A stretch of DNA of 60,824 nucleotides. Origin: Thermoproteota archaeon. Its GTDB lineage: Archaea > Korarchaeota > Korarchaeia > Korarchaeales > JAOZGB01. Each line of letters begins with the position of its first letter. Position 1 is the first letter of the stretch. Shown here one piece after another: positions 11,760 to 60,824 of this stretch. Where the stretch lies: positions 1-60,824 of the forward strand of contig JAVCBU010000001.1 in the NCBI GenBank assembly GCA_037917685.1. Reading direction: 5' to 3'. Made by a program: the position numbers and the translations under genes. Below the pieces are notes generated by a model. It worked only from the letters and a program-made list of their open reading frames with translations. It did no database searches and had not been told where the DNA came from.

Positions 11760-11766
11760 CGTTACA

Positions 11767-25811: not shown

Positions 25812-25823
25812 GGAGGGAGAAAA

Positions 25824-27335
25824 ATGATCGACCCGCTCTTATTTACGCTTGTCTTGCTTATTGTTGGCGCAACAATAGTTTATGTTATAGGTAGAGAATC
25901 AACAAAAGCTGCAGGATGGTTAGCCTTTGCACTGTCCTTTGCATCTCTAGCAATATTTTCAATAAGTATAGTGCCTGAGGTTCTTAAAGAAGGTTTATAT
26001 TTGAAGGAATATTCATGGGCTGAGATTATTGGTTTAACATTCGGGCTACGGGCAGACAGTCTGAGTTCACCGATTGCAGGAATAATATTGCTTTTATGTA
26101 CACTTGCCACATTATATTCCATAGAGTATATGTCACATGAACATGATCAAGAATTATATTTCGCACTTCTACTTCTTTATATAGCGGGTATGTTCGGCGT
26201 TGTTCTTGCAACTAATTTAATTCAATTTTATATTTTCTGGGAATTAATGTTAATTCCATCATGGTTGCTCATCGCGCGATGGGGAACATCGGAAAAAGCC
26301 GATTTAATAGCTTTTAAGTACTTTATGTTCACACATTTAGGTGCTCTCTGTATAATCCTCGGTATTGCTGCAACATGGAGCTTAACATCAACTTTTGACT
26401 TATACTCGGCAGAAATGGTCAGTGGTATCGCGGCAGCTCCAGCATCAACCCTTAAACTAATAGTGATTCTATTTATGCTGGGTTTCGCAGTAAAAATGGC
26501 ATTATTTCCATTGCACAACTGGTTACCAGATGCTCATGCCGAAGCCCCCACCCCAATAAGCGTTATTCTTTCAGGTGTTATGATAGAATGCGGGACTTAT
26601 GCAGTTGCTAGGATCCTTCTCACCTTCTTCGGAACTATATTTGTAACATATACGATAGCATTCATGACAATAGCTGTAATAACGATGATTTATGGAGGAG
26701 TACTAGCTTTAGCTCAAAATGACCTTAAAAGGTTATTTGCATGTTCAAGTATATCACAAATGGGTTACATGTTTTTAGGGCTATCTGCAGCTACGGAATA
26801 TGGAATTGCTGGGTCGATGTTTCACATAATTAATCATGCTATATGTAAGGGTCTTCTCTTCATGGTAGCAGGTGTTCTGATGCATCAAATAGATCCAATA
26901 AAAGGTAGAGACATGAGTAAATTGGGAGGACTAGCTGGGAAAATGCCAATAACTGCCACTATAACACTTATCGCAGGATTATCAATAGCAGGGACACCGC
27001 CACTCAATGGTTTCTGGAGTGAAGTTTGGATCTTTGCAGGGGTTTTCGAATTAGGGTTCGCCTCGAAAGGCAATATGACTTCGGTGCTTTTAATTGCGGC
27101 ATTAGCTGTAATTTCAACTGTGATAACTGCTGGTTATATACTGTGGATGATAAAAAGGGTGTTCTTCGGCCCGCCGAGAGAAGAATTCGAAAACGTTAAA
27201 GAACCTCCATTGACCATGTTAGCCCCGATGGCATTTCTAGCCTTCCTTGCAGTCCTATTGGGCTTCTACCCTGATCTTGTACTAAAAATAGTTGCCTCAG
27301 CGGCGGAAGAAATATCAAAACTAATTAGTAGATAA
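25824..27335 (+). CDS. nuoM: Complex I-like subunit M
   Basis: FYIFWELMLIP, VKMALFPLHNWLPDAHAEAP, GFWSE. Confidence 0.93.
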   Translation: MIDPLLFTLVLLIVGATIVYVIGRESTKAAGWLAFALSFASLAIFSISIVPEVLKEGLYLKEYSWAEIIGLTFGLRADSLSSPIAGIILLLCTLATLYSIEYMSHEHDQELYFALLLLYIAGMFGVVLATNLIQFYIFWELMLIPSWLLIARWGTSEKADLIAFKYFMFTHLGALCIILGIAATWSLTSTFDLYSAEMVSGIAAAPASTLKLIVILFMLGFAVKMALFPLHNWLPDAHAEAPTPISVILSGVMIECGTYAVARILLTFFGTIFVTYTIAFMTIAVITMIYGGVLALAQNDLKRLFACSSISQMGYMFLGLSAATEYGIAGSMFHIINHAICKGLLFMVAGVLMHQIDPIKGRDMSKLGGLAGKMPITATITLIAGLSIAGTPPLNGFWSEVWIFAGVFELGFASKGNMTSVLLIAALAVISTVITAGYILWMIKRVFFGPPREEFENVKEPPLTMLAPMAFLAFLAVLLGFYPDLVLKIVASAAEEISKLISR

Positions 27336-43926: not shown

Positions 43927-44370
43927 TTAAATGACAAAGTATTCGGGGCATATTTTCATATTTCGAATCCAGAAAGACACTTGTACGTCTTTTACGTGTG
44001 AAATGTTTGTAACTTTGAGAATTAGGTCGTATAAGTGCTCGAAATCCCGAATCACACCAATTGCCATGAGGTCACAGTCTCCCACGATTTTTGTTGCTAA
44101 AATTAGGTCTTTTATCTCAATTAATTTATTTAGAACCTCTGAAGAATATTCAGGTTCTGCATCGATCATGAGAGCTACCATGCTTTTATATCCTATTCTT
44201 TCTGGGTTGATTACAACTGTTGAACCTTGAATTACACCTTTTTTCCGCAACATTCTAAATCTGTTCACTATAGTATCTGGTGAGACTTTAAGCTTTCTAG
44301 CAATTTCTCTGAACGAGGTACGTGCGTCTTTCTTAAGCTTTTCAATTATAGTTAAGTCAATTTTATCCAT
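43927..44370 (-). CDS. Lrp/AsnC-family regulator
   Basis: DKIDLTIIEKLKKDARTSFREIARKL HTH plus RAM domain. Confidence 0.93.
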   Translation of the reverse strand: MDKIDLTIIEKLKKDARTSFREIARKLKVSPDTIVNRFRMLRKKGVIQGSTVVINPERIGYKSMVALMIDAEPEYSSEVLNKLIEIKDLILATKIVGDCDLMAIGVIRDFEHLYDLILKVTNISHVKDVQVSFWIRNMKICPEYFVI

Positions 44371-44385: not shown

Positions 44386-44850
44386 CTAAAGTTTGAATTC
44401 GAAATTTTCTGGGCAAAGTAGAACTTGTCCGACCCAAATATTCGTACTCAAGCTTTTTACATGTGGATGGCTTTTAATAAGATCTCTTACTTCATTTAAA
44501 CGGGTAATATTCTTAAAAATTGCTATACTAAACAAGTTACATCTACCTATTGATGGAACACAGAAGAGCACCTCAGGTATTTCTCGAACAAACTTAATTA
44601 CATCGTTTATGTAGGGATAGTTGACATCGATGCAGAAACTAGCTATATGTTCATATCCGAGTTTCTTTGGGTTAAGTAAGATAGTAGTTCCAGAAATTAT
44701 TCCCATTTTCTTCATTTTATTAAACCGTCTGATTACTGTATCTGTGGAAACCTTACACTGTTTTGCGATAGCTGTAAATGGAGTTCTACCGTCTTGCTGA
44801 AGGATTCTCAATATTTTAACATCAATTTCATCAAGTTTCGCCCTCGTCAT
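44386..44850 (-). CDS. Lrp/AsnC-family regulator (tandem paralogue)
   Basis: DEIDVKILRILQQDGRTPFTAIAK HTH; shares the C-terminal W....CPE.F motif with its neighbour. Confidence 0.93.
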   Translation of the reverse strand: MTRAKLDEIDVKILRILQQDGRTPFTAIAKQCKVSTDTVIRRFNKMKKMGIISGTTILLNPKKLGYEHIASFCIDVNYPYINDVIKFVREIPEVLFCVPSIGRCNLFSIAIFKNITRLNEVRDLIKSHPHVKSLSTNIWVGQVLLCPENFEFKL

Positions 44851-45062
44851 GAACTTTCCACCTTGCGAAGCCCCTGATCTGACATTATAGTATATATTTC
44901 AGTTTAAAAACTTATAGCGTCCGACGAGGCCACGTTTTTCGGTCATTTTACTCTCGCTTTTTTATCCTTAGATGTGCGAAAATGTCAGATATTAACTCCC
45001 ATATATCGGACGAAATCTTTATTAATAACTGTAAATAACTGTACTACCCCAAATTTACAAAG

Positions 45063-45347
45063 GTGAAAGCATTGAGCATCGGACATATACTCGAAAAAGA
45101 GTTGAGAAAGAAGCGATATTGTTGTGCCCACTGTGGTTATACATGGATCGAGTATGTTGGTCTTATCATTGAAAAAAGAAAGGGGTCAGATGATTTACAT
45201 CTTCGGATAGGATACGGCATGCCCTCTGAATGTCAAGAATGTGGATGTGATCTCGTATACGAAGTAGCACTCCCCGAAGAAAATCAGCAAAATGAAGTTA
45301 GTTTTGAAGGTATTAAAAGAATCATAAAAGAAAGAATGGAAGTATAA
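45063..45347 (+). CDS. Small zinc-ribbon/rubredoxin-like hypothetical protein
   Basis: CAHC...CQEC pair; first gene of the hdr operon. Confidence 0.6.
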   Translation: MKALSIGHILEKELRKKRYCCAHCGYTWIEYVGLIIEKRKGSDDLHLRIGYGMPSECQECGCDLVYEVALPEENQQNEVSFEGIKRIIKERMEV

Positions 45348-45379
45348 CATTTATGATTAAGTAAGATGGAGGTCGCAAA

Positions 45380-48300
45380 ATGAGGAACATGACTGGAGAT
45401 ATACTTGTAATAGGTGGTGGAGTGGCTGGTATATCAGCGTCCTTAGAACTCGCCGAGAAAGGGTTTAAAGTTTACTTAGTGGAAAAGGAACCTTCAATCG
45501 GAGGACATATGGCCCAACTGGATAAAACTTTTCCGACGCTTGATTGTTCTATATGTATTCTTGGACCGAAAATGGTTGAAGTTTCCAGACATCCTAATAT
45601 AAAACTCCTTGCATATTCTGAAATCGTAGATGTAAAGCCTATAAAAAACGGGTCTGCATTCCAAGTCAAAATACTTAAAAAACCACGGTATGTAGATGAG
45701 GAAAAATGCACCGGGTGCCGAAGATGTGAAGAAAAATGTCCAACCAAAGTTCCCAGCGAATTCGAAGAACAAATGGGCTTAAGAAAAGCAATTTACATCC
45801 CTTTCCCGCAAGCTGTGCCAAATATTGCGACCATCGACAAAGATCACTGTCTTTATCTTACTAAAGGAGTTTGCAGAGTCTGTGAAAAAGTGTGTCCAGC
45901 AGGTGCGATTAATTTCGACCAAAAACCTCAGGAACTTGTGATGGAGGTTGCTTCCATAATTGTTGCAACTGGTTTTTCTCTCTTGAATCCATCCGTTTTG
46001 CCACAGTATGGGTATGGTAGATTTCAAGACGTTATAACATCATTACAGTATGAACGCCTTATGAACGCTGCTGGACCTACGAGTGGAGAGATTATTAGAC
46101 CGTCGGATAAAACACATCCAAAACGAATTGCAATTATTCAATGTGTTGGGTCCAGAAACAAAAAAATAAAGGATTATTGTTCACAGATTTGCTGTATGTA
46201 TGCAGCAAAGCAGGCTATAGTTACGAAAGAACATGACCCAAGTATAGATGTGATAGTTTTCTATAATGATCTGAAAGCATCTGGTAAAGGTCATGAAGAG
46301 CTAATAAGAAGAGCTGCCGAAGAATATCAAATTAAATACATAAAGGGATTGCCAAGCGAAGTTTTATGGAACGAGAAAAGTAAGAATTTACTAATAAGGT
46401 ATGCTGATCTTCCCAATGGAGAAATTAAATCTGTAGAAGTGGATTTGGTAGTTCTTTGTCCTGCAGTAGTCCCGGGAGATGATATGTCCAAATTAGCTGA
46501 AATTCTCGGAATAGAATTGAATGAGTTTGGTTTCTTTAAGTCTACTGGAGGCATATCAGTTAATACTAATGTTCCTGGTATGTATGTATGTGGCGCGTGT
46601 CAAAATCCCAAAGATATTTCTCACAGTGTAATGCAAGCACTAGCTGCTGCAGCTCAAGCAGCAAGTAGAGTAAAACATGCGAATAGACAAACACGCACTT
46701 TAAGCAAAGCAAGTACGTCGAAAAAGGGAAAAACATTAGCTCAAGAACCAAGAATAGGTGTTTTTGTATGTCATTGCGGTCTTAATATAGCTGCTGTTGT
46801 AGACGTTAAGTCCGTCGTGGAGGAAGTAAAGAAACTTGACAATGTTGTTCATGCAGAAGATTTAATGTTTACATGTTCTAAGGACGGAACAGAGCGAATT
46901 AAGGAGGCTATTAAAAAATACAATCTTAATAGAGTTATAGTGGCTTCATGTACTCCAAGAACTCATGAGCCGTTATTCCGCACAGTATGTGAGGAAGCAG
47001 GATTAAATCCATACTTATTTGAAATGGTTAACATTAGGGAACACGTTGCTTGGGTTCATAAAAATTATCCTGAAGAAGCAACTGAGAAAGCAAAGGAACT
47101 TGTTAGAATGGCTGTGGCAAAAGCAAGGCTTCTAGAACCATTGGAACGGATGGAAGTAGAAGTTACTCCTGCTGCCCTTGTTATTGGAGGAACAGTTAGT
47201 GGTCTTATAGCTGCGAAAAACATCGCCGACAGTGGATTTAAAACATATCTTATCGAAAGTAGAGATAAAATAGGATATGACTTACATCTTTACGGATGCG
47301 ATGAAGAGATTAAATGGGTTTCTCACCTAATTAACTCTATAAATAAACATGAAAACATTGAGGTTCTTCTCTCCACTAAAATAGAGGATATTAGGGGCTC
47401 AATAGGAAATTTCAGCGTTAAACTAAGTCAAAATGGATCCAGTAAGGAAATTAAAGTTGGAACAATAGTCGTAGCAACTGGTGCTGAAGAGCTTAAGCCA
47501 ATGGGACTATATGGTTACGGAAAATTTAACAACATTTATACTATGTCTGAGTTCCAGCAAATAGATGACAACCTGAAAGATGGAGAAACCATAGTATTTA
47601 TCTTATGTGCTGGTGCTAGAGAAAAATCTGGTCTAACATACTGTTCTGCTATTTGCTGCGAAAAAGCTCTAAGAGAAGCAATTAAAATCAAAAACAAGTA
47701 TCCAAAGCTGAATGTGTACGTTTTATACAGAGATATAAGGTTGCCAGTTGAAGGTGAAAAACTTTATCGCCAAGCTCGTGAAGCTGGAATAGATTTCATA
47801 AGGTATGATTTAGATAGAATGCCTGAAATCCGTCAAGAAGACGGAAAATTCGTTATGAATGCTTATGACGTTACGTCCCAAATAGATTTGGAAATATTCG
47901 TTGATAAAGTTGTTTTAGTTACACCAATTGTACCTATTGAAGAAAATCGCGAACTTTCATCTAAACTCAAAGTCCCTCTTGACGACCACGGGTTCTTCCT
48001 AGAAGCTCATCCAAAACTTAGACCCGCAGATTTCGCAGTCGATGGTATTTTCCTCTGTGGACCAGCCTATGGTCCGCAAAGACTAGATGAAAACATTTTC
48101 CAAGCATTAGCTGCAGCCTCGCGGGCTCTTACCCCACTAATGCAAGGAAAAGTAATTACCGAAGCTATTATAGCTGATGTTAATCCAGAACTTTGCACAG
48201 GTTGTGGACGATGTGAAAATGTTTGCGAATTCGGTGCAATCAAACTAGAATTCACTTCAGATAAACGACTGGTGGCTAAAGTTGATCCATCACTATGTAA

Positions 48301-48829
48301 AGGATGTGGATCATGTTCAGTTGAATGCCCCGCAAGAGCTATAACGTTGCATCACTTTAGAAATGACCAGATTTTGAGTATGCTTAGAGCTGCATTTGAA
48401 AAACCAGCACCAAGAGATAAGCCTAAAATTATAGCTTTCTTCTGCAACTGGTGTGGTTATGCCGCAGCGGATACGGCAGGTGTAAGCCGCTACGAATATC
48501 CACCAGCTGTTGAAATCATTCGTGTTATGTGTAGTGCCAGAGTAGATCCGCTTCACATACTTTATGCCTTTCTACTGGGGGCCGATGGTGTATTAATTGT
48601 CGGATGCCATCCAGGTGACTGTCATTATATCTCTGGAAACTTAAGGGCTGAAAGACGCATACTACAGGTAAAAGAATGGTTAAAAGACATTGGTTTAGAA
48701 CCAGAGAGAGTTAGACTTGAATGGGCTTCAGCCGGAGAAGGATTAAGAATAGCTAAGATTATTGAAGAATTTACACATCAAATAGAGGAACTTGGGTTAA
48801 ATCCTTTGAGAAGGGGGGTTAGTTCATGA
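45380..48829 (+). CDS. hdrA: Heterodisulfide reductase subunit A-like flavoprotein (two HdrA-type modules) fused to MvhD
   Basis: GGGVAG, LDKTFPTLDCSIC, QCVGSR, CSQICC, GVFVCHCG, ASCTPRTHE, NIREH, HPKLRP, ferredoxin motifs; C-terminal MvhD FFCNWCGY/RVMCSARVD/GCHPGDCHY. Confidence 0.93.
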   Translation: MRNMTGDILVIGGGVAGISASLELAEKGFKVYLVEKEPSIGGHMAQLDKTFPTLDCSICILGPKMVEVSRHPNIKLLAYSEIVDVKPIKNGSAFQVKILKKPRYVDEEKCTGCRRCEEKCPTKVPSEFEEQMGLRKAIYIPFPQAVPNIATIDKDHCLYLTKGVCRVCEKVCPAGAINFDQKPQELVMEVASIIVATGFSLLNPSVLPQYGYGRFQDVITSLQYERLMNAAGPTSGEIIRPSDKTHPKRIAIIQCVGSRNKKIKDYCSQICCMYAAKQAIVTKEHDPSIDVIVFYNDLKASGKGHEELIRRAAEEYQIKYIKGLPSEVLWNEKSKNLLIRYADLPNGEIKSVEVDLVVLCPAVVPGDDMSKLAEILGIELNEFGFFKSTGGISVNTNVPGMYVCGACQNPKDISHSVMQALAAAAQAASRVKHANRQTRTLSKASTSKKGKTLAQEPRIGVFVCHCGLNIAAVVDVKSVVEEVKKLDNVVHAEDLMFTCSKDGTERIKEAIKKYNLNRVIVASCTPRTHEPLFRTVCEEAGLNPYLFEMVNIREHVAWVHKNYPEEATEKAKELVRMAVAKARLLEPLERMEVEVTPAALVIGGTVSGLIAAKNIADSGFKTYLIESRDKIGYDLHLYGCDEEIKWVSHLINSINKHENIEVLLSTKIEDIRGSIGNFSVKLSQNGSSKEIKVGTIVVATGAEELKPMGLYGYGKFNNIYTMSEFQQIDDNLKDGETIVFILCAGAREKSGLTYCSAICCEKALREAIKIKNKYPKLNVYVLYRDIRLPVEGEKLYRQAREAGIDFIRYDLDRMPEIRQEDGKFVMNAYDVTSQIDLEIFVDKVVLVTPIVPIEENRELSSKLKVPLDDHGFFLEAHPKLRPADFAVDGIFLCGPAYGPQRLDENIFQALAAASRALTPLMQGKVITEAIIADVNPELCTGCGRCENVCEFGAIKLEFTSDKRLVAKVDPSLCKGCGSCSVECPARAITLHHFRNDQILSMLRAAFEKPAPRDKPKIIAFFCNWCGYAAADTAGVSRYEYPPAVEIIRVMCSARVDPLHILYAFLLGADGVLIVGCHPGDCHYISGNLRAERRILQVKEWLKDIGLEPERVRLEWASAGEGLRIAKIIEEFTHQIEELGLNPLRRGVSS

Positions 48830-49338
48830 GTAAAACTGTAACTTCTTTCAAATCCACCGAAGTAGATTCTAGCTTGAAATTTAAGATTGCAAATACAGAA
48901 TTAGGAGGTAAAGCTTTCTGGTGTGTACAGTGCGGTGTATGTACCTCTGGGTGTCCTGTTGCTGAATTTCTGAAGCCTCATCAAATAGTTAAGATGGTTG
49001 CGTTAGGATTAAAAGAGCAGCTAATTAACTGTAGGGAGATTTGGCTGTGTACTACCTGCTTTACATGTTCACAGAGATGCCCACAAGAAGTTGATCCAGC
49101 AAATATCCTATTTTTACTGAAGAATATGGCAGCAGAACAAGGTATACTTCCTAAAGGATTGATAGATATAGGTAAGAGTCTAACTGAAACTGGAAGGGTC
49201 ATTAAGATCAGTGCTGGTCGAGAAAGGAAAAGAGCGGAACTTGGGCTTCCAAAGGTTCCGCAAGTGCATGTTGAAAAAAATAGGAAAATTTTGGAAGAAA
49301 CTAGCCTTATAAAAACTTTGGAGGGGGTAAAGCAATGA
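48826..49338 (+). CDS. hdrC: Heterodisulfide reductase subunit C
   Basis: CVQCGVCTSGCP and WLCTTCFTCSQRCP. Confidence 0.93.
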   Translation: MSKTVTSFKSTEVDSSLKFKIANTELGGKAFWCVQCGVCTSGCPVAEFLKPHQIVKMVALGLKEQLINCREIWLCTTCFTCSQRCPQEVDPANILFLLKNMAAEQGILPKGLIDIGKSLTETGRVIKISAGRERKRAELGLPKVPQVHVEKNRKILEETSLIKTLEGVKQ

Positions 49339-50216
49339 AATATGCATACTACTTGGGATGCTGGATTCCAGCGAGATTGAATCAATATGACTTGTCCACC
49401 CGTGTCATAGCAAGGAAACTTGGAATTGAACTCGTGGATCTGGAAGGTGCAGGTTGTTGCGGTACAGTACTTGTTCGCTCTGTAAACTTTAGGACTAATT
49501 TGATGATGAGCGCTAGGATATTAGCGCTAGCTAAAAACATGGGACTTGATCTTCTTGTCCTCTGCAACGGTTGCTACGAGTCTCTCACTGAAGCGGAGAA
49601 CTTGATTAAAACAAACGAAAACTTTAGGGAAGAAGTTAACGCCCTACTCAAATCCACAGATAACTTGGTTTATGAAGACAATAAAAAAGTTAAACACTTA
49701 ATTCAAGTTTTGCACGGTGACATAGGGCTCGAAAAGCTTAGGGATGAAATCAAAGAGCCGCTTGACGGTTTAAGAGTAGCGGTTCACTACGGTTGCCATA
49801 TCTTACGACCATCTGATAGATTAAAATTTGACGATGCCGAGAACCCAAAAATACTTGATGAACTTGTTGAAGTCACTGGTGCAAAAAGTATTTACTGGCC
49901 TCTTAAACTCTGGTGTTGTGGTTCACCAATATTGGCAATAGATAGGAACTTAAGTTTATCTATAGCTGGGATGAAGCTGAAAAGCGCTAAGGAAGCTGAA
50001 GCTGACTGTATAGTAACCATCTGTCCATCTTGCCAGATTCAATTTGACACTTTGCAGCCTGAAATAAGCAAAGTTACTGGAGAACAATACAATATACCTG
50101 TACTTCTTTATCCCCAACTGCTTGGACTTGCTATGGGATTTACACCTGAAGAAGTAGGTTTACATCTTAATAAGATAGGTGCAGATAGCCTACTAAAACT
50201 TCTAAGTAAAGCTTAG
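49335..50216 (+). CDS. hdrB: Heterodisulfide reductase subunit B
   Basis: Two CCG domains: YLGC/GCCG/CNGC and HYGCH/WCCG/CPSC. Confidence 0.93.
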   Translation: MKYAYYLGCWIPARLNQYDLSTRVIARKLGIELVDLEGAGCCGTVLVRSVNFRTNLMMSARILALAKNMGLDLLVLCNGCYESLTEAENLIKTNENFREEVNALLKSTDNLVYEDNKKVKHLIQVLHGDIGLEKLRDEIKEPLDGLRVAVHYGCHILRPSDRLKFDDAENPKILDELVEVTGAKSIYWPLKLWCCGSPILAIDRNLSLSIAGMKLKSAKEAEADCIVTICPSCQIQFDTLQPEISKVTGEQYNIPVLLYPQLLGLAMGFTPEEVGLHLNKIGADSLLKLLSKA

Positions 50217-50218
50217 AG

Positions 50219-51334
50219 GTGGAAATCATGGTTAAAGAACTTAAAAAGAATGTTTGGAATGTAAATAGATGTAGTGGATGTGGAATGTGTGTTTCAACAT
50301 GCGCAAAGAACGTTATACGATTTCCCGAGGAGGAAGATCACCCAGTTTTAGATATCAGAGAAAAAACCGTTGGGTTATCACACATAGTGGTAGATACGTG
50401 TTTCTTCTGCGAAAAGCCATGTGAAGACAGTTGTCCTAAACTAAAAGAATGGAAAAAAGGGCCTGTAATTCGTACAGTTTCCGCGGTTTCAAAGTTATCG
50501 GATGGTAATGTTATTAATGCACTTCTGGTTTCAGCACTTAGATACGGGCTCATTGACGGGGCGATTTTATGGGATGTAGAAAGAAATTATTTTAAACCGT
50601 TACCTAAAGTTGTAACAACCGAAGAAGAGATACTAAAAAGTGCGGGTTATCAGCATTTGTGGTTTCCAGTTCTCGGAGCTTTAAATGATGCCATCTATGG
50701 AAGGGGATTAAAGAAAATAGCAATTGTTGGGCCACCATGTGTCGCTCAGGCAGTTAAAACTGTGCTTTCATCCACGAATAAAAAGCTTGAAATTTATAGA
50801 AAGCGGATACGTTTAACCATTGGATGGTTCTGTGACGGTGTTTATTCTTATCGGTTGATAACTGACGAAGTAGTTAATAGATTTAACATTAAGCCCTACG
50901 ATATTAAAACGATAACTGCAGATCTTAGAGATGAGTTACTGAGAATTGTATTACATGATGGATCCGAAAAGACTATCCCATTGTCAGATGTTCGAAAATA
51001 TATGAGGAATGGTTGCGCTCGCTGTACAGACTTCGCATCCGAATGGGCCGATGTGTCCGTTGGAAATGTGGGCTCAGAAAAAGGAAAAACCACTATCATT
51101 GTTAGGACCCCCATTGGTGAAAAATGTTTTGACTATGCTGTCAGGGAGAAAACTATAGAGATTATAAATGTTCCTGTTGATATGGAAGAGATACAGAGGT
51201 TTGTTTCAGATAAGGAAAGAAGAAAACATGCGCAAGAAATAGATTCACTTCTTTTGTCAACGTTGAATGCTTTGTCAGGTGTGAAAAGTAAAGAGGAAAT
51301 TGAAGAAAAGTTGGAGTTGATTAGGAGGAAGTAG
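50219..51334 (+). CDS. Coenzyme F420 hydrogenase/dehydrogenase beta-subunit-like (FrhB/FdhB family) protein with N-terminal ferredoxin
   Basis: CSGCGMCVSTC, VGPPC, IGWFC, GCARCTDF..EWADVSVGNVG, TIIVRTPIG. Confidence 0.88.
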   Translation: MEIMVKELKKNVWNVNRCSGCGMCVSTCAKNVIRFPEEEDHPVLDIREKTVGLSHIVVDTCFFCEKPCEDSCPKLKEWKKGPVIRTVSAVSKLSDGNVINALLVSALRYGLIDGAILWDVERNYFKPLPKVVTTEEEILKSAGYQHLWFPVLGALNDAIYGRGLKKIAIVGPPCVAQAVKTVLSSTNKKLEIYRKRIRLTIGWFCDGVYSYRLITDEVVNRFNIKPYDIKTITADLRDELLRIVLHDGSEKTIPLSDVRKYMRNGCARCTDFASEWADVSVGNVGSEKGKTTIIVRTPIGEKCFDYAVREKTIEIINVPVDMEEIQRFVSDKERRKHAQEIDSLLLSTLNALSGVKSKEEIEEKLELIRRK

Positions 51335-51997
51335 ATGATGGAATATAGAGTGGATGCGAATGGTAAAGATTTAAAGGCGGTAAATTCTGAGATTAGGAAA
51401 GCAATTAAGGATGGAGCTGAGAAAATAGTAGTTGAAAATGCTTCTCATATTCATGGACTTGCAGCAGGGTTAAACCGCGGCAACATTGTCATAAACGGAA
51501 ATGTAGGAGATTACACAGGTGCATTAAATGACGGGGCAACAATTACAATAAACGGTAGCGCTGGTAAATTTTTGGCTGATAACATGACTAAAGGCACGAT
51601 TATTGTTAATGGAAACACAGGATATGGAGCTGCGGAATATTGCTACGGCGGGATAGTGGTAATACGTGGAAACGCTGAAGATTTTCTAGGCGCCCTAAAT
51701 AAGGGCGCAACAATACTAGTCGCGGGAAACGCTGGAAACGACATAGGGACTTACATGGTGGGAGGAGAAATAATAGTAGTTGGAAATGTAGGTGAAAATG
51801 TAGGCAATTGGTTTATTCGTGGCAGCATTTTTGTTGGCGGGAAATGGCAGAGTTTAGGGCATAACTGCAAGAAAGTGCCGATAGAAAGCCAGGATGTAAG
51901 AAGACTTGAAGAATACTTTAATAAATTTAATATAAACGCAGATCCGAGGAAATTTAAAAAACTGGTACCTATCTCGATTAAACCATTCTATAAGTAA
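51335..51997 (+). CDS. Glutamate synthase GXGXG beta-helix subunit (GltB domain 3 / FwdC-like)
   Basis: Repeated I.G..G...G...  units (INGNVGDYTG, INGSAGKFLA, IRGNAEDFLG, VAGNAGNDIG). Confidence 0.88.
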   Translation: MMEYRVDANGKDLKAVNSEIRKAIKDGAEKIVVENASHIHGLAAGLNRGNIVINGNVGDYTGALNDGATITINGSAGKFLADNMTKGTIIVNGNTGYGAAEYCYGGIVVIRGNAEDFLGALNKGATILVAGNAGNDIGTYMVGGEIIVVGNVGENVGNWFIRGSIFVGGKWQSLGHNCKKVPIESQDVRRLEEYFNKFNINADPRKFKKLVPISIKPFYK

Positions 51998-52011
51998 GGG
52001 GTGATAGTAAT

Positions 52012-53556
52012 ATGCCTATATTAGGGTCCTATTGTGTTACGATGGATAAAGAACGTTGTATTAGTTGGAAAATGCCTTGGAAATGTTCAACCTGCGTAGA
52101 GGTTTGCCCTAATTCTGTTTTTTCTGTAGACGATATGGGCAGAGCATATGTTCTCAACGACCTGGCATGCGTTGGTTGTAGAATTTGTATTGAAAACTGT
52201 CCTAACAATGTAATTCATATCCGACCAGCTGAATCTGAACATTTCTCAAGAGGGTTATGGACATTTCAAGCCATTGAGGAAATTCACTATAAGGCTGAAA
52301 CCGGAAAATATTTACTCAGAGGATTTGGAACCATGGGGTTAATGCCACACTTCGACGATTTAGTTATTGTACCAGCTCAACTTTATCCGCCTGCCCCTAA
52401 GGACAAATATAGAGAAGAGTGCAAAATGGATGTTGTAATTGGCGAAGGAAGGGTAAAAAAGCCTTTAAAGCTTAAAATACCCATTATGTTTGCTGCCATG
52501 TCATACGGTGCAATTTCAAGAGAAGCTAAGATAGCTTTAGCTATAGCAACTGCCAAAATGGGAATTGCTGCATGTACAGGTGAAGGGGGCTCTTTCCCCG
52601 AAGAATACTATCTTGCACATGGTTATAAGAATGAAGAAGACTTCAAACGTGGTAAAAAGAGCTATGAACCAGGTGGGCAGCTAATAGTTCAGTGGGCTAG
52701 TGGTAGATGGGGAGTTTCCGTTAATTACCTTAACAGGTCAGATGCTATTGAGATTAAAATAGGACAAGGAGCAAAGCCTGGTATGGGCGGCCATTTACTT
52801 GGAGAAAAAGTTACAGAAGAGATAGCTAAGATTCGTGGTATACCAGTTGGTACAGATTGCCTTTCACCTTGTCGTCACTATGATATTTGGAGTGTTAAGG
52901 AAGATTTGAAAAAGCAGATTGCACTTCTTCGAGATGTAACAGATTATGAAAAGCCAATTATTGTAAAACTAGGTCCTGGAAGAGTTTATAAGGATGTTAA
53001 ACTTGCTGCTGAGGCAGGCGCAGATGCGATAGCTATAGATGGTACACAAGGCGGAACAGGGGCTGCTCCAGAAATGGCTATTCAAGCTGCTGGAATTCCA
53101 ACAATAGGCTGTATTCCACCTGCCGTTAGAGCACTTGAGGATCTTGGTCTACGTGAAGAAGTGAAGCTTATTGCTATGGGTGGAATTCGTAACGGGGCAG
53201 ATGCTGTAAAGGCTTTAGCATTAGGTGCTGATTGTGTAGCGATAGCTTCCGCAGCTCTGATCGCGATGGGATGCCGTGTATGTACGCAATGTCTCAGGGG
53301 AAGATGTCCTTATGGTATAACATCTCAAGACCCTGAACTTCGAAAAAGGCTTCAACCTGAAAAGGCTGCTGAACGATTAGTTAATTTCTTAAAGGCCATG
53401 TCCGAGGAGATTAAAATGCTTACGATGCTCTCAGGCCACGATGATATCCATCAACTATCAAAAGAAGATCTACGAGCCTTAAATGTTAATGTTGCAGCTA
53501 TAACAGGTGTAAAACTTGCAGGTTTCGAGAAACAGATCCCCGAAGGATGGAAATAA
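52012..53556 (+). CDS. FMN-binding glutamate synthase subunit (GltB domain 2) with N-terminal 2x[4Fe-4S]
   Basis: AMSYGAIS, TGEGG, QWASGRWG, EIKIGQGAKPGMGGHL, DGTQGGTGA, GGIRNGAD, CRVCTQCLRGRCPYGI. Confidence 0.93.
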   Translation: MPILGSYCVTMDKERCISWKMPWKCSTCVEVCPNSVFSVDDMGRAYVLNDLACVGCRICIENCPNNVIHIRPAESEHFSRGLWTFQAIEEIHYKAETGKYLLRGFGTMGLMPHFDDLVIVPAQLYPPAPKDKYREECKMDVVIGEGRVKKPLKLKIPIMFAAMSYGAISREAKIALAIATAKMGIAACTGEGGSFPEEYYLAHGYKNEEDFKRGKKSYEPGGQLIVQWASGRWGVSVNYLNRSDAIEIKIGQGAKPGMGGHLLGEKVTEEIAKIRGIPVGTDCLSPCRHYDIWSVKEDLKKQIALLRDVTDYEKPIIVKLGPGRVYKDVKLAAEAGADAIAIDGTQGGTGAAPEMAIQAAGIPTIGCIPPAVRALEDLGLREEVKLIAMGGIRNGADAVKALALGADCVAIASAALIAMGCRVCTQCLRGRCPYGITSQDPELRKRLQPEKAAERLVNFLKAMSEEIKMLTMLSGHDDIHQLSKEDLRALNVNVAAITGVKLAGFEKQIPEGWK

Positions 53557-56178: not shown

Positions 56179-56376
56179 TTACCTTACACTTTAATTTACA
56201 CCTCTCAAACTTTTATTCATTTAAGAGTGGGTTTACATTATTTCTATCAGTGTATATTGACCAGAATTAGGCTTAAAATGAAATGATTCCTTTTCATTTG
56301 TAAAAATTTGAGCAAAAAGATTAGCAATTCCCTGCCAAAAAAGAGCTCGGAAACTGCTTATTTTAGGCTCTGGATA

Positions 56377-56425
56377 TGGTGCGGGGGTGGGATTTGAACC
56401 CACGACGGGACAGCCGCCTCAAGGG
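56377..56425 (-). pseudogene. Degenerate 3' half of tRNA-Leu(GAG), att-like
   Basis: TT-GAG-GC-GGCTG-TCCCGT-C-GTGGG-TTCAAAT-CCCAC-CCCCGC-A-CCA; acceptor strand one base short, variable arm shortened, 5' half absent. Confidence 0.65.
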
Positions 56426-56524
56426 GGTGCCATCAGTAGTAATTTTAATTTGCCCACCTTCTACAAGCATAAACAATATAAAACTTGACGCTGTAATATA
56501 TATATCATGAGGCGGTGACGTAGT

Positions 56525-56875
56525 ATGATCACACAATTCTCAACCCATGTGGCAAAGGAAAAATTGAAGATAAACACCGTAATAAAGCTGTTTACCCTGG
56601 TATTGCTGTACGATGGCCCGAAGCACGGCTACGAGCTCATGAAGTTCCTAGAAGTGAAGCTCGGAACGAGGATAGGCCCCTCCCAGGTCTATCCCTTCCT
56701 GAGACAGCTGGAGAAGCATGGCCTCTTGAGGTCCGTGAAGGTAGGGCCTAGGGAGAAGAAGATCTACGAGCTTACTACGGAAGGAAAGTACTTTGTAAAA
56801 GACCTGCTGGAAAGAGCGATAGAAGTAATACAGACAAGTGTCAAGGCTTTGGGCCCGGAGAGGGTCTGCCCATAG
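56525..56875 (+). CDS. PadR-family transcriptional regulator
   Basis: GPKHGYELM, VYPFLRQLEKHGL, KKIYELTTEG. Confidence 0.92.
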   Translation: MITQFSTHVAKEKLKINTVIKLFTLVLLYDGPKHGYELMKFLEVKLGTRIGPSQVYPFLRQLEKHGLLRSVKVGPREKKIYELTTEGKYFVKDLLERAIEVIQTSVKALGPERVCP

Positions 56876-57647
56876 TGCTAACCTTCTCGTCTGCGAAGAC
56901 GAAGGCGAGCAGCTCGTCTACCTCCCTCTGGTCGAGCTTCTCGTACCTCTCGGTGCTTCCAACGTCATACCAGAATGCCTCCGTGACGTAGGCCTCGACC
57001 CTCAAACCGCGCCTTATAAGTAAGGGTACAAGGTCCCTCATTATATCGGTCTGACCTCCGTAGTCAAGTAGCTCTTCGACAAGTCCCACAACGTCGGTCT
57101 TGAGCGCCAGTATGCCCATCACGGCGGGCTTGCCCAAGGGGGGCTTCTCGACGAGCTTCACTATCCTGGAGCCCCGAAGCTCCGCCACTCCCACGCTGAC
57201 CGTGTAGTTCTCAGATAGGGCGAGAGTCGCTGCGGCCTCTCTATCCTTATGTATCCTTAACAGCTCAGATATGTTAATGTTGGACAGTATGTCTCCATAG
57301 TAAACCACTATGTTGTGGGAGTCGCCCAGGTAGCCTCGGATGTAGGCGTTATACAGGGCTCCGGCGTTTCCCGGGTACCTGGGATCATCCTTAAGATACT
57401 GGATCTTCACGCCGAATCTAGATCCATCGTCAAAGTAGTTTATTATCTGCTCGGCCTTGTAGTCTACGAGTAGTACTATCTTCTCAATTCCGTGGTAGCT
57501 CAGCAACCTGACGATGTACTCAAGCAGGGGTTTCTGCCTCATGCCGACGGGTATCATGGACTTCTGGAAGTAGTAGGTGAGAGGCCTGAGCCTCGTGCCC
57601 TTGCCGCCGCACAGAATCACGCCTTTGATATCCCCCAAACGAGTCAC
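56841..57647 (-). CDS. Sugar-phosphate nucleotidyltransferase-family protein
   Basis: LCGGKGTRLRPLT, KPLLEY, YYGDILS, VEKP, WYDVGS. Confidence 0.92.
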   Translation of the reverse strand: MTRLGDIKGVILCGGKGTRLRPLTYYFQKSMIPVGMRQKPLLEYIVRLLSYHGIEKIVLLVDYKAEQIINYFDDGSRFGVKIQYLKDDPRYPGNAGALYNAYIRGYLGDSHNIVVYYGDILSNINISELLRIHKDREAAATLALSENYTVSVGVAELRGSRIVKLVEKPPLGKPAVMGILALKTDVVGLVEELLDYGGQTDIMRDLVPLLIRRGLRVEAYVTEAFWYDVGSTERYEKLDQREVDELLAFVFADEKVSTMGRPSPGPKP

Positions 57648-57876
57648 CCTTAGATAAATGGAAGTCAGAAAGGTTAATTAATATTTATTAGGCGAACTTC
57701 TAGACGTTTCAAGTAAAAGAGTTTTCTGCTCTTCCATACGATATTGTCACGCCCTGGAGGCGAATGGTGTTCTTCTACATTCTACCACCTTGCGAGCACC
57801 TTCTCGGGAATCGCACACGCCCCGCGAAGGGAATGTTTATACACGTGAGTAAGTACTGAGAATGAGAGGTGAGGAC

Positions 57877-59175
57877 ATGTACGAGCTCGACGATTTTATC
57901 ATATCTTATGTCAGGGGCCGATGGATCCTCGATTCGAGAGGAAACCCGACGGTGGAGGCCGACGTAGGCACGGCGGGCGGGGGGATGGGGACGGCCGCTG
58001 TGCCATCCGGAGCTTCTAGGGGGGCCCACGAGGCCCTGGAGCTGAGGGATGGAGGGGAAAAATTCCTCGGAAAGGGGGTGGAAAAGGCGGTGAGGAACAT
58101 AGACGAGGTAATAGCTAGGGAGATAGTCGGCCTTGACAGCAGGAACCAGAGGGAAGTAGATAACGTAATGATATCCTTAGATGGCACGCCGAACAAGTCC
58201 AGACTAGGGGCAAACGCCATACTAGCAGTTTCTCTAGCAGTCGCGAAGGCCGCCGCGAACACCTACGGCCTCCCCCTCTTCCAGTACCTGGGAGGAGCCG
58301 TGGCCAACGTTATGCCAGTCCCGCTCATGAACGTGATAAACGGGGGGAAGCATGCCGGGAACCAGCTAAGGATCCAGGAGTTCATGATCGTTCCCGTAGG
58401 CGCCGGCTCCTTCTCGGAGGCCCTGAGGATCGGCAGCGAGGTCTACCATACTCTGAAGGAGCACCTGAGGGAGAAGTACGGGAGGGGCGCGGTCAACGTG
58501 GGCGACGAGGGGGGCTTCGCCCCACCTATGAAGGAGAGCAGGGAGGCTCTGGAGGCGCTGGTCCAAGCTATAAAGGGCGCCGGTTACGAGCCAGGAGGTG
58601 ACCTGTTCCTGGCACTGGATGCGGCGGCGACGGAGTTCTATGATGGCGAGAAGGAGACTTACGAGGTGGATGGGAGAGAGCTGACAAGGGATCAGCTCCT
58701 TGAGTACTACCGAGGCCTGGTCGAGGAGTTTCCGATAATCTCGATCGAAGATCCCTTCCATGAGGAGGACTTCGAGGGATTTAGGGTAATAAGGGAGGAA
58801 CTTAAGGATCTTCAGATAGTTGGCGACGACCTCTTCGTGACCAATCTAGAGCGTCTAGCCAAGGGAATAGAGTTAGGGGCTGCAAACTCTCTGTTGCTGA
58901 AAGTTAACCAGGTAGGCACGCTGTCCGAGGCGCTCGATGCCGCCTACAAGGCTATGAGAAATGGATACACGGTCATAGTAAGCCACCGCAGCGGCGAGAC
59001 GGAGGATAACACGATAGCCCATATAGCTGTGGCGCTCAACTGCGGCCAGATAAAGACTGGCGCCCCGGCGAGGGGGGAGAGGACGGCCAAATACAACGAG
59101 CTCCTGAGGATTGAGGAGTACTTGGAGGATGCTGCCACATTCCCCGGAGCCTCGGTGTTCAAGAGAAGGTGGTAG
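57877..59175 (+). CDS. eno: Enolase
   Basis: [58 protein letters not shown]; start 57877 or 57862. Confidence 0.97.
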
Positions 59176-59180
59176 CCAGG

Positions 59181-59744
59181 TCAGATAAGTCTGCACGCCG
59201 CCAGAGTTGCGAGAAGCGCCACGGCCACGCCCCCCACCAGCTGGGGGAGGGAGTGTGCCCCCATCTTTAGCCTCGACCAGAATACGGGGATGATGAGGAT
59301 GTAAAGTACATAGAACCAAGAGCTGAGCATGTTGGCTAGGAGGGTTGTCGGAGTCACGATCCCGGCTGCATGGATGCTAACCTTCCACCACCTGCTGATC
59401 AACAACAAGATAAAGCTGACGAACATCGATACCAGGAATAGCGTGACGAACTGGCTCAGCGAGAGGACGGCAGACGCCGCCAGACCCAGGATATAGGAAA
59501 GCTCTGTTAACAAGAAGTACTTTAGTCTCTTTTCTCGCTCCGATACGAACACGTCTACTTCCCCCGCGAGGGCGTCCGTGAGGATGAATAGGAAGGGGAG
59601 CACGCTGGCGAAGAAGGAGGCGGCGGCCAACGCCACAATCCCTCCCTCATATCCGCTCCCAATCCAGAGCAGCGCCACTACCACAAGGCTGTAGGCGTGC
59701 GGAGACAGGATCAGTGAAACCAGTGTTGCCAGATCTACCTTCAT
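59181..59744 (-). CDS. PAP2-like membrane protein
   Basis: Multi-TM; WKVSIHA and WSRLKMGAHS..QL..G motifs. Confidence 0.75.
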   Translation of the reverse strand: MKVDLATLVSLILSPHAYSLVVVALLWIGSGYEGGIVALAAASFFASVLPFLFILTDALAGEVDVFVSEREKRLKYFLLTELSYILGLAASAVLSLSQFVTLFLVSMFVSFILLLISRWWKVSIHAAGIVTPTTLLANMLSSWFYVLYILIIPVFWSRLKMGAHSLPQLVGGVAVALLATLAACRLI

Positions 59745-59807
59745 GGCCGTTCCATTTGGACACTTGGTTAGACAGTTTTATTTACGTTATAAAACTATTT
59801 CCTTGGT

Positions 59808-60233
59808 ATGGATGTTCCACCTCTCCGAATACTAGGCCTCCCCGAAGAGCTGTCGTGGATGCTTGTAGGAGAGGTTGTCATCATTCTTGTCTGGGTATCC
59901 TATGGGTTGCTTAGGTCAAAGGTGAGGAGGTTTAGGCCGGAGGCATCCCTTTTCGGGGAGAGCGAGCTTACGAGCGTAAATCTCTCAGACATACTGATTT
60001 TCGGGTTGGCCAATTCGATCGTCGCGGCCCAGTATGCCTCCAGTGTGTATAGCCTAATTCTCTCATTTTTCATCCTTCAGATCGCCTTCCAGCCTTACTC
60101 GGCGACTCTCGTCTGGCTGTCCCTGCTAGTCGCATTAGTGGGAGCGGTGCTTTTATACGCCGGATACAGGAGATCTAGGGAGATAGCTAGGATCGAAAAG
60201 ACCAGGATAGAATTGAGGAGGCGAGGCTTGTGA
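59808..60233 (+). CDS. Hypothetical membrane protein
   Basis: Three to four hydrophobic segments; stop overlaps the next start. Confidence 0.6.
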   Translation: MDVPPLRILGLPEELSWMLVGEVVIILVWVSYGLLRSKVRRFRPEASLFGESELTSVNLSDILIFGLANSIVAAQYASSVYSLILSFFILQIAFQPYSATLVWLSLLVALVGAVLLYAGYRRSREIARIEKTRIELRRRGL

Positions 60234-60824
60234 GGCTGAAGCGAACTTTTGAGGGATATAGCTTCTTCCTACTGGACTGCGACGGAGTTGTGTGGAGGGG
60301 GGACGTTCCCATAGGGACGGCTATAACGGCGATAAAGGAGCTTGAAAAGGCGGGCAAGATCGTGGCCTTCCTGACGAATAACTCCTCCCTTACTAGGAGG
60401 AGCTATGTTGCCAAGCTCTCCGGAATGGGCCTCAGCGTCTCCGTCGAGAGGATATTTACGAGCTCTTACGCTACGGCGTTACTGCTTTCGCCAAAGGGAG
60501 GGAAGGCCTTTGTGGTGGGCGAGGAGGGGATAGCCGAGGAGCTCGAATCGCAGGGGATATCAGTCGTCGAGAAGGGGTGGGCGGACTACGTAGTCGTAGG
60601 AATAGACAGGAGCTTTAGCTATTGGAAGCTGGCCAAGGCCATGAGGCTGATAAGAGGTGGAGCCATCTTCGTTGCTACCAACACGGATAAAACGATACCT
60701 TCTAGGGAAGGGGAACTTCCCGGGGCTGGGGCTATGGTTTCGGCCGTCGAGGCGTGTGCGGGCAGGCCCCCGGACGTGGTCGTTGGAAAGCCGGAGAGGA
60801 CGATATTCGAAATCGCCCTGGGGG
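60230..60824 (+). CDS. HAD-IIA (NagD-like) hydrolase (partial, runs off the right edge; absent from the ORF track)
   Basis: Manual translation from GTG 60230: FLLDCDGVVWRG, FLTNNS, IFTSS, ATNTD, PGAG, VGKP. Confidence 0.9.
   Translation, partial: MRLKRTFEGYSFFLLDCDGVVWRGDVPIGTAITAIKELEKAGKIVAFLTNNSSLTRRSYVAKLSGMGLSVSVERIFTSSYATALLLSPKGGKAFVVGEEGIAEELESQGISVVEKGWADYVVVGIDRSFSYWKLAKAMRLIRGGAIFVATNTDKTIPSREGELPGAGAMVSAVEACAGRPPDVVVGKPERTIFEIALG

Follow-up and report, generated by a model that had tools for sequence, protein, structure and literature searches.

What would a set of heterodisulfide reductase (Hdr) genes do when it is joined to a glutamate synthase (GltS) that has no amidotransferase? 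This question is raised by a stretch of archaeal DNA of 60,824 nucleotides (positions 1 to 60,824 of contig JAVCBU010000001.1, GenBank assembly GCA_037917685.1, deposited as a Thermoproteota archaeon), to which we refer throughout as the window, and whose list of open reading frames (ORFs) holds seven ORFs between 45063 and 53556, all on the + strand and arranged as a compact array. The predicted product is a composite iron-sulfur flavoprotein complex, in which an Hdr module would be wired via MvhD and an FrhB-like protein to an amidotransferase-less GltB2/GXGXG pair. The seven genes probably form one operon, and the Hdr and GltS parts are likely to function as one unit. Regarding the chemistry of this unit, we tentatively suggest flavin-based bifurcation by an Hdr-type complex whose high-potential arm is a module interconverting 2-oxoglutarate and glutamate in a reversible reaction that depends on ammonia. 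It is even conceivable that the operon is the first of a new class of flavin-based bifurcating enzymes, a ferredoxin-coupled, ammonia-dependent glutamate synthase/dehydrogenase confined chiefly to Asgard archaea and to a small number of Anaerolineae, in which an amidotransferase-less GltS would have been grafted onto HdrA-MvhD via FrhB.

The compactness of the array (Table 1) is seen most clearly at its junctions, which from hdrA to GltB2 measure, in order, -4, -4, +2, 0 and +14 nt, while orf94 is set apart from hdrA by a 32-nt spacer, in which a GGAGGT ribosome-binding site precedes the hdrA ATG. Gene content, coordinates and tight coupling had been described in a first-pass annotation of this DNA and have been confirmed by the ORF list and by Pfam and NCBIfam searches. 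Its statement that amidotransferase, mvhAG and fdhA genes are missing from the operon has held as well, as the same searches of the operon proteins have returned no GATase_2, hydrogenase or molybdopterin subunit, and no family match at all for orf94. An internal promoter before frhB, by which the annotation had thought the two halves might be separated, finds no intergenic room in the 2-nt gap between hdrB and frhB, and could lie only within hdrB. No terminator-like site has been found on the + strand inside the operon in a scan of the window, and a sigma-70 promoter scan has yielded 31 sites versus 31.1 expected, which is chance level for a model that is in any case irrelevant to an archaeal host.

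The linkage of the two halves is conserved well beyond the window. Species-representative genomes and metagenome contigs have been scanned with an alignment of FrhB homologues, and an Asgard sample has been searched in addition; the resulting set comprises 28 loci with an FrhB orthologue, the window included. HdrA is located upstream in 27 of these, either directly or via HdrC-HdrB, and the contig of the 28th begins within hdrC; Hdr genes thus directly precede FrhB in 28/28 loci, and the gene order for which the earlier annotation had proposed a search is indeed conserved. Downstream of FrhB, GXGXG and GltB2 have been found in all 23 loci with sufficient flank. The loci carry three phylum-level labels (Asgard, Thermoproteota-labelled and Chloroflexota), and since the arrangement recurs in 27 loci other than the window, it is far beyond chance. 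Its spread is sporadic: 11 of the 301 Asgard genomes sampled contain the cluster, and in the 301-genome phylum samples drawn around L040 and L033 it has been found in the centre genome alone.

Three layouts share the common core HdrA-MvhD / FrhB / GXGXG / GltB2. In layout A, the window type, the order is HdrA-HdrC-HdrB-FrhB-GXGXG-GltB2 (window, L032, L033, L037, L072, L073, L152, L153 and L155, with the labels Baldrarchaeum, 'Bathyarchaeia' and Geocrenenecus), and the hdrB/frhB junctions of the other type-A loci are just as tight as that of the window. Layout A', found in other Asgard archaea (L147-L150, L154, L038, L111), consists of a double HdrA followed by FrhB-GXGXG-GltB2, to which some loci add, downstream of GltB2, a second FrhB-like gene, HdrC-HdrB or both. 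Layout B, found in Chloroflexi and related metagenome contigs, reads NuoE-NuoF-[2Fe2S/4Fe4S protein]-single HdrA-MvhD-FrhB-GXGXG-GltB2, and no HdrBC has been found in the Chloroflexi loci within the flanks fetched. The type-B HdrA-MvhD retains its GxGxxG motif but is devoid of the inserted ferredoxin domain, and the upstream trio of NuoE-like, NuoF-like (HydB-type domain set) and HydA-N/HoxU-like proteins corresponds to the domain set of bifurcating HydB/HydC/HydA-N proteins. Type-B clusters (L039-L041, L034, L036, L075, L076) start with a pair of GAF histidine kinase and response regulator and end, after GltB2, with a PPDK_N protein (phosphoenolpyruvate-utilising, ATP-grasp-like) of ~860 aa or a ~175-aa N-terminal-like fragment of it; L075 and L080 show a ~1.1-kb spacer holding two small opposite-strand ORFs. 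The small orf94 is conserved in the closest loci only (78% identity in L037 and 86% in L152), and the small ORFs that precede HdrA at further Asgard loci have proved dissimilar to it on sequence comparison. In a quick maximum-likelihood tree (IQ-TREE), the Hdr-linked FrhB proteins, that of the window included, form a single clade of 18 rows (SH-aLRT 100), which is united with the clades of methanogen proteins of the predicted F420-dependent glutamate synthase (FGltS) in a clade of 33 rows (SH-aLRT 97).

Several variants of the arrangement have been observed alongside. In L152 (G092) and L155 (G082), HdrC and HdrB share merely 52% and 59% identity with the window, as compared with 79-94% for HdrA, FrhB, GXGXG and GltB2, and this gap relative to the flanking genes suggests that the hdrCB cassette has been replaced inside an otherwise conserved operon. 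At L151 (G295:C1, ~1.856 Mb), a GltB2 that is shortened at its N-terminus (64% identity) precedes a second FrhB-like gene and the pair HdrC and HdrB, a solute-binding-protein gene lies upstream, and neither HdrA nor the FrhB orthologue has been found nearby. A different cluster, lacking GltB2, is found at L097 (a metagenome contig), where a double HdrA of 45% identity is accompanied by an HdrC-like gene and by an FrhB that is only distantly related (26%). GltB2-like paralogues of 38-46% identity occur in 32 further Asgard genomes of the 301, and about a dozen of them (e.g., in G122, G100, G312, G135, G195 and G270) contain a single in-frame stop (TAA, TGA or TAG) within the match, which may indicate two adjacent genes for the ferredoxin and FMN parts, or recoding.

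Judged from the sequences, the loss of the amidotransferase is a systematic feature of the Hdr-linked loci and not an accident. GltB1 is absent from all 28 of them, whereas the methanogen-type (type-C) loci carry GltB1 in 11/11 cases and HdrA in 0/11, in the order GltB1-GltB2-GXGXG-FrhB. A distal gltB1, which the first-pass annotation had considered capable of restoring an ordinary glutamine-dependent synthase, has not been found either. PF00310 (GATase_2) has matched none of 14 cluster-bearing genomes (0/5 and 0/9), among them that of the isolate L. arvoryzae (4.4 Mb assembled), in a search whose control was positive in 13/14 reference genomes. A Methanocaldococcus GltB1 query of ten cluster-bearing genomes has found no gltB1 (0/10), returning only ~100-aa matches in ORFs of purF/glmS/asnB size, with the sole exception of a 283-aa GATase_6/7+ACT ORF in G043 that is not GltB1-like; the same query has matched 3/3 control genomes with E-values of 1e-118 to 1e-257. 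As an MgsA/GATase_2-like gene is also absent from the operon and from the 14 carrier genomes, the proposed analogy to N-methylglutamate synthase (MgsABC), of which only the MgsB (GXGXG) and MgsC (FMN) counterparts are present, fails; the label 'methylamine-glutamate N-methyltransferase subunit C' that homologues sometimes bear in databases is an automatic one.

The surroundings of the loci fit an amino-acid context, leaving the direction of the reaction unfixed. Genes of the glutamate dehydrogenase (GDH) family, as assigned by the best NCBIfam families, are located beside 7/28 loci on the operon strand (L147-L150, L154, L033 and L153), and the Hodarchaeota-like loci hold a divergent GDH copy upstream and a canonical copy downstream. 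Two Lrp/AsnC regulators precede the operon in the window as well as in L037 and L152; regulator 1 occupies the same position there at 84% identity, and regulator 2 shares 84-86%. For regulator 1 the best NCBIfam families are Lrp/LrpA/AsnC/LysM, all under cut-off. In L147 and L149 a conserved 255-aa protein without Pfam match has been noted, to which a 183-aa ORF (partly masked) in L151 is similar.

At the level of the individual proteins, the cofactor motifs have been found intact in HdrA, MvhD, HdrB and GltB2. The HdrA fusion scores 1185 bits against HdrA2 (NF040770), above the cut-off of 1100, and matches FlpD/MvhD at residues 1017-1139 (E 2.6e-52). When aligned to the solved M. wolfeii enzyme (5ODC_A, and 5ODC_D/7BKB_F for the MvhD part), it contains every HdrA domain in permuted or duplicated order, with a single GxGxxG (residue 12) in the whole protein, Fe-S motifs at residues 110, 165, 939 and 973, and four invariant Cys in the MvhD part. 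As only one dinucleotide motif remains, the fusion looks like one complete HdrA split across two half-copies. HdrB aligns over its full length to 5ODC_B (E 7e-74) and keeps CC, CxxC and the single Cys in both CCG motifs, with 294 bits against TIGR03288 (cut-off 345); HdrC reaches 101.6 bits against TIGR03290 (cut-off 160). The FrhB-like protein, which is presumed to be the adaptor linking MvhD and GltB2, comprises FrhB_FdhB_N and FrhB_FdhB_C domains and an N-terminal 2x[4Fe-4S] domain, and among solved structures it is closest to the F420-reductase modules 8rja_E and 8riu_B and then to FrhB and Fsr, with the FdhB of Fdh-Hdr being more distant. A structure prediction for the MvhD domain (residues 1010-1149) together with FrhB has returned scores of 0.01 and 0.00, which is no answer either way. 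The GXGXG protein shows 94 bits against FwdC (TIGR03122, cut-off 130) and a weak match to residues 1291-1427 of the GltS large subunit. In GltB2 (PF01645, 390.8 bits), residues 159-475 correspond to residues 854-1154 of A. brasilense GltS alpha (2vdc/1ea0, E 7.6e-48), and the QGAKPGxGG motif and three cluster cysteines are kept, with one additional, fourth Cys near the cluster motif. We take QGAKPGxGG to be the 2-oxoglutarate/synthase-site motif and the three cysteines to be ligands of the Fe-S cluster.

Table 1. Features of the window. Positions are nucleotides of the window, except for the domains of the HdrA-MvhD fusion, for which residues are given.
Feature	Position	Strand	Basis
orf94, small zinc-ribbon-like protein, 94 aa	45063-45347	+	two CxxC pairs (CCAHCG...CQECGC) in translation
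HdrA-MvhD fusion, 1149 aa	45380-48829	+	NF040770 and FlpD/MvhD
FAD/thioredoxin-reductase domain with inserted 2x[4Fe-4S] ferredoxin domain (fusion)	residues 7-379		= 5ODC_A 145-511
HdrA N-terminal domain (fusion)	residues 455-604		= 5ODC_A 2-151
Second thioredoxin-reductase-like domain, GxGxxG lost (fusion)	residues ~600-870		middle glycine gone: GGTVSG
C-terminal ferredoxin domain (fusion)	residues 871-1007		= 5ODC_A 516-651
MvhD (fusion)	residues 1014-1144		= 5ODC_D/7BKB_F
HdrC-like 2x[4Fe-4S] subunit, 170 aa	48826-49338	+	Fer4_8/Fer4_17; overlaps hdrA by 4 nt
HdrB-like subunit, two CCG motifs, 293 aa	49335-50216	+	PF02754 in 2 stretches
FrhB/FsrN-like flavo-iron-sulfur protein, N-terminal 2x[4Fe-4S] domain, 371 aa	50219-51334	+	PF04422, PF04432 and Fer4_7
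GXGXG (GltB3/FwdC-like beta-helix) subunit, 220 aa	51335-51997	+	PF01493, 60.5 bits
GltB2, glutamate synthase FMN/synthase domain with N-terminal 2x[4Fe-4S] ferredoxin domain, 514 aa	52012-53556	+	PF01645 and Fer4_7
AT-rich divergent intergenic region, likely promoter region	44851-45062	.	sequence inspection
Lrp/AsnC-family regulator 1, divergent from operon	43927-44370	-	Pfam HTH_AsnC-type and AsnC_trans_reg
Lrp/AsnC-family regulator 2, divergent from operon	44386-44850	-	Pfam HTH_AsnC-type and AsnC_trans_reg
[NiFe(Se)]/group-1-like hydrogenase, small and large subunit	18182-20892
HycI protease	17716-18198
Complex-I-like gene block	6893-13269
Complex-I-like gene block	23715-27335
Radical-SAM protein, 866 aa, interrupted by intein	34668-37268	-	Intein_splicing, residues 119-604
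NTP transferase and enolase, probably of another organism	56300-60824

How the complex would work can be outlined from this gene content, from which we infer the physical association of the subunits, the substrates, the direction, the bifurcation and the role of HdrBC. Once deprived of glutamine hydrolysis, the GltS part would retain the reversible reaction 2-oxoglutarate + NH4+ + 2e- <-> glutamate. Electron pairs would be delivered by a mid-potential donor, which in the archaeal form would be F420H2 at FrhB and in the Chloroflexi form NADH at the NuoEF/HydBC-like module, and bifurcation would direct one electron downhill to glutamate formation and the other to the reduction of ferredoxin. For NADH this would sum to 2 NADH + 2-oxoglutarate + NH4+ + 2 Fd(ox) -> glutamate + 2 NAD+ + 2 Fd(red). 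The 2-oxoglutarate + NH4+/glutamate couple lies at ~-120 to -140 mV, as derived from the GDH equilibrium, close to the heterodisulfide at -140 mV, and the potentials of the further partners are -340 mV for F420, -320 mV for NAD and -420 to -500 mV for ferredoxin. The NADH-coupled reaction accordingly amounts to about -39 + 35 kJ/mol and is near equilibrium, like other bifurcating systems, so that the complex could also run backwards. In peptide fermenters, reduced ferredoxin from 2-oxoglutarate:ferredoxin oxidoreductase would then pull the unfavourable oxidation of glutamate, and all electrons would be delivered as NADH or F420H2. HdrBC may handle a second disulfide of undefined identity.

The anticorrelation between Hdr linkage and amidotransferase fits this proposal, since a reversible enzyme working near equilibrium would not want an irreversible glutaminase step. 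FdhB touches MvhD/HdrA in the solved Fdh-Hdr complexes, and it speaks for the proposal that these complexes (7bkb, 8rvu) contain this FrhB homologue together with MvhD and HdrA. Several observations nevertheless weigh against it. If FrhB docked on MvhD in the manner of FdhB, the GltS module would come to lie at the electron-donor position and not at the high-potential acceptor position of HdrBC, and the model would therefore need reverse flow or a different docking. HdrBC, although present in the window type, has no role in its simplest form, and as the type-B HdrA is devoid of the inserted ferredoxin domain, type-B bifurcation may sit in the NuoF-like subunit instead. HdrC, HdrB, GXGXG and the GDH-like proteins all score under the curated NCBIfam cut-offs. 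CofD, the marker of F420 biosynthesis, exceeds its cut-off in 12/19 cluster-bearing genomes, and no enrichment of it has been found in carriers (9/11 of those in the Asgard sample versus 187/301 overall). Finally, the carriers also hold glutamine synthetase (10/10) and ordinary GDH/ELFV-family dehydrogenases (9/10 over cut-off), and the complex is therefore not obviously needed for glutamate.

Alternatively, and in our view rather doubtfully, the operon could encode two co-expressed enzymes that share one input. FrhB would oxidise F420H2 and feed two separate sinks, namely the putative F420-dependent glutamate synthase, here in an ammonia-using form made up of FrhB-GltB2-GXGXG, and, via MvhD, an HdrABC bifurcating to an undefined disulfide and ferredoxin as in the F420H2-dependent HdrA2B2C2, with glutamate synthesis uncoupled from ferredoxin. 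Both halves of such a hub have counterparts, as FrhB and GltS occur without Hdr in methanogens (11 type-C loci), where they have been proposed as FGltS (excerpts of PMC3448663 and PMC3087415), and HdrA-MvhD fusions beside FrhB belong to proposed F420-linked Hdr complexes of methane-oxidising archaea (excerpts of PMC12054007 and PMC9012536). In the window type, moreover, HdrABC is complete and its CCG motifs are intact, and CofD has been found in 10/13 archaeal carriers, including the closest proxy of the host (G092). What two uncoupled enzymes leave unexplained is why the amidotransferase should be missing from 28/28 Hdr-linked loci and present in 11/11 Hdr-free ones, and why the Chloroflexi form combines HdrA-MvhD-FrhB-GltS with an added NuoEF-like NADH module in the absence of HdrBC nearby; CofD is, furthermore, absent from 4/6 Chloroflexi carriers. 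The first-pass annotation had favoured yet another assignment, in which GltB2/GXGXG/FrhB replaces the hydrogenase or formate dehydrogenase at MvhD, so that electrons from glutamate would pass to a disulfide and to ferredoxin/F420, or, with the flow turned round, thiols and reduced ferredoxin would confurcate onto 2-oxoglutarate and NH4+. The core linkage on which it was built is conserved, with MvhD fused to HdrA, hdrB and frhB in close contact, and FrhB homologous to the FdhB that accompanies MvhD and HdrA in 7bkb and 8rvu. Its glutamate-donor direction is thermodynamically implausible, however: the couple is no lower than the heterodisulfide and far above ferredoxin, and glutamate (~-130 mV) can therefore not act as a mid-potential donor that reduces both a disulfide of -140 mV and ferredoxin of -450 to -500 mV, while the reverse direction would waste ~190 mV. 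Neither McrA (PF02249) nor ComA (PF02679, which marks only one route to coenzyme M (CoM)) has been detected in any of the five type-A genomes searched, which are metagenome-assembled genomes (MAGs) that do not include the true host; these hosts would thereby differ from those of the CoB-CoM heterodisulfide reductase, and a CoM-S-S-CoB pool in type-A hosts is unlikely. Together with the lack of HdrBC in the examined flanks of the Chloroflexi loci, these points make the replacement of the donor an unlikely explanation.

It would also be conceivable that GltB2/GXGXG acts on another substrate, be it another 2-oxo acid or imine or an amine adduct, in which case the operon would encode an Hdr-linked reductase unrelated to glutamate. 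The absence of the defining amidotransferase, the identity of merely 36-39% to methanogen GltB2 and the abundance of 'FMN-binding glutamate synthase family' paralogues without assigned function, among them those of the 32 further Asgard genomes mentioned above, point in this direction. We nonetheless regard it as improbable, given that QGAKPGxGG and the cluster cysteines are conserved versus solved GltS, that GDH-family genes (7/28 loci) and Lrp/AsnC regulators (window) lie nearby, that FrhB falls into one clade with FGltS proteins, and that an N-methylglutamate-synthase analogue would require the MgsA gene that has not been found. That the juxtaposition might be meaningless, a product of assembly or of chance adjacency, has been considered as the contig is chimeric near 56.3 kb and mis-binned. 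The joint is located 2.8 kb past the end of the operon, however, and the hdrB/frhB junction is spanned by contig fragments of two public DNA runs, each from a different study (47807-50556 in X1, which may be the source sample of the contig, and 49195-50556 in X2); with the recurrence of the arrangement under three phylum-level labels, this explanation is effectively refuted.

In comparison with known systems, the coupled complex postulated here would have Hdr-type bifurcating complexes as its parent kind, with a fair chance of representing a new enzyme class. As precedents for Hdr/MvhD modules driving the reduction of moderately high-potential organic substrates, the HydABC/Bfu-type bifurcating enzymes of the NuoF family and the MetFV-HdrABC-MvhD of acetogens are available; a HydB/HydC/HydA-N-like trio precedes HdrA-MvhD in the Chloroflexi relatives, whereas it is absent from the window, and the substrate module is a different one. 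With the HdrABC-MvhD complexes (Mvh-Hdr, 5ODC; Fdh-Hdr-Fmd, 7BKB; 8RVU) the operon shares all HdrA domains, MvhD, HdrC, HdrB with both CCG motifs and an adjacent protein of the FrhB/FdhB family; unlike them, it has a 1149-aa two-half HdrA with fused MvhD and one GxGxxG, and, in place of a docked MvhAG/FdhA donor subunit, a glutamate-synthase fragment as partner. An HdrA of 'type II', with MvhD fused to its C-terminus and an additional thioredoxin-reductase domain, has been described for methane-metabolising archaea (excerpts of PMC12054007). Likewise, HdrA2(MvhD-fused)B2C2 and FrhB-associated Hdr clusters, in which FrhB/FdhB has been proposed as F420 entry or exit, have been reported for Methanosarcina, anaerobic methanotrophic archaea (ANME) and alkane oxidisers (excerpts of PMC12054007 and PMC9012536). 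The operon shares the type II fusion and the adjacent FrhB with these clusters, which, unlike it, either end with FrhB or continue with a molybdopterin protein that is non-catalytic, GltB2/GXGXG partners being unmentioned in those portions of the text.

The other half of the operon corresponds to FGltS, which has been predicted and never purified (excerpts of PMC3448663, PMC3087415 and PMC9012536 for the prediction, and of PMC3087415 for the latter). As in FGltS, an FrhB-like protein with N-terminal 2x[4Fe-4S] adjoins GXGXG and a ferredoxin-fused GltB FMN subunit; unlike in FGltS, Hdr genes are present in a different gene order, and while the proposed FGltS reaction uses glutamine, the operon has no GltB1 subunit for it. 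The FMN synthase domain, the cluster cysteines and the GXGXG beta-helix are common to GltS in general (NADPH-GltS, 1EA0/2VDC; Fd-GltS, 1OFD), and turnover of 2-oxoglutarate to glutamate, as catalysed by GltS, is tentatively proposed for the operon too. It differs from glutamine-dependent GltS in that the domains reside in separate genes, that a class II amidotransferase domain and GltD are absent, that a fourth Cys is present and that electrons would enter by another route. The earlier statement that no complex of such composition has been characterised is in line with the literature searched, in which no description has been found of an Hdr-GltB2/GXGXG cluster, a systematic GltB1 loss or a GDH association, although clusters of this kind might appear in the supplementary tables of PMC9012536 and PMC12054007.

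The host of the operon is not the organism to whose bin the window has been assigned. Within this bin (G000, 1.81 Mb) the window is contig C22, with a GC content of 0.389 versus 0.41-0.52 elsewhere, and no other 10-kb chunks of the genome are as low in GC as the first five of the window, which are also outliers in a principal component analysis. It duplicates genes located on contigs C1, C6 and C7 of the bin at 24-72% identity (complex-I-like genes, NiFe hydrogenase, ArsA, UbiA, polyprenyl synthase, enolase, TrmI and malic enzyme), and an FrhB orthologue has been found in none of 40 taxonomic relatives of the bin. The word depth, derived from contigs of two public sediment runs, is ~200-1040 (X1, mostly 300-700) up to ~56.8 kb and falls about five-fold to 60-150 thereafter; a short repeat at ~56349-56382 reaches a depth of 2000-5900, and past ~56.3 kb the GC content climbs from ~0.38 to 0.49-0.56. 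From composition, duplicated genes, the orthologue absent in relatives and the break in depth it follows that the contig is a chimera with its joint near 56.3 kb and has been mis-binned, and that the operon stems from an abundant organism other than that of the bin; the last 4.5 kb are probably from another organism than the first 56 kb. Absences in the bin are consequently uninformative, arguments drawn from the window's own genome are unsafe, and the absence of PF00310 and McrA from G000 has been discarded; other carrier genomes have been used instead. The operon probably comes from an Asgard archaeon of the Baldrarchaeia type: the ATPase subunit I of the window shares 94% identity with its counterpart in G092, a genome of the Asgard phylum sample that is the best proxy, and 71% with a Baldrarchaeia-labelled MAG protein as the best named match. 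G042, G043 and G044 have been rejected as hosts, since a DNA search with positions 1-20000 of the window has matched only their malic-enzyme gene (68-71%), and ATPase subunit I shows 38-45% identity in G043.

In the wider neighbourhood, convergent methyltransferase genes are located on the downstream side of the operon. The hydrogenase genes with their HycI protease lie 25 kb upstream of the operon, are not Mvh-like and are flanked on either side by complex-I-like gene blocks; an intein-containing radical-SAM gene is also present (Table 1). The bin itself contains other Hdr-like clusters (C2:28935-38722 and C4:5046-12116) with a weak Glu_synthase match, HdrB/CCG proteins and weak FrhB_C matches, which are unrelated to the window operon (31-51% identity).

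The long-predicted and unpurified family of FrhB-linked glutamate synthases has a second branch, which is devoid of the amidotransferase. As one of its carriers, Longilinea arvoryzae KOME-1, is a cultured isolate, the hypothesis can be tested directly. If the coupling is real, a central reaction of nitrogen and amino-acid metabolism would join the short list of those driving flavin-based electron bifurcation, and, among the numerous orphan Hdr-like clusters found outside the methanogens, one would gain a function. In the synthetic direction, ~40 kJ/mol from the reductive amination of 2-oxoglutarate would be stored in the form of reduced ferredoxin, which in the opposite direction would pay for the oxidation of glutamate to mid-potential carriers. 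This would explain how energy-limited anaerobes, including peptide-living Asgard archaea, keep the free energy of glutamate synthesis from being wasted or manage to oxidise glutamate although this is unfavourable.

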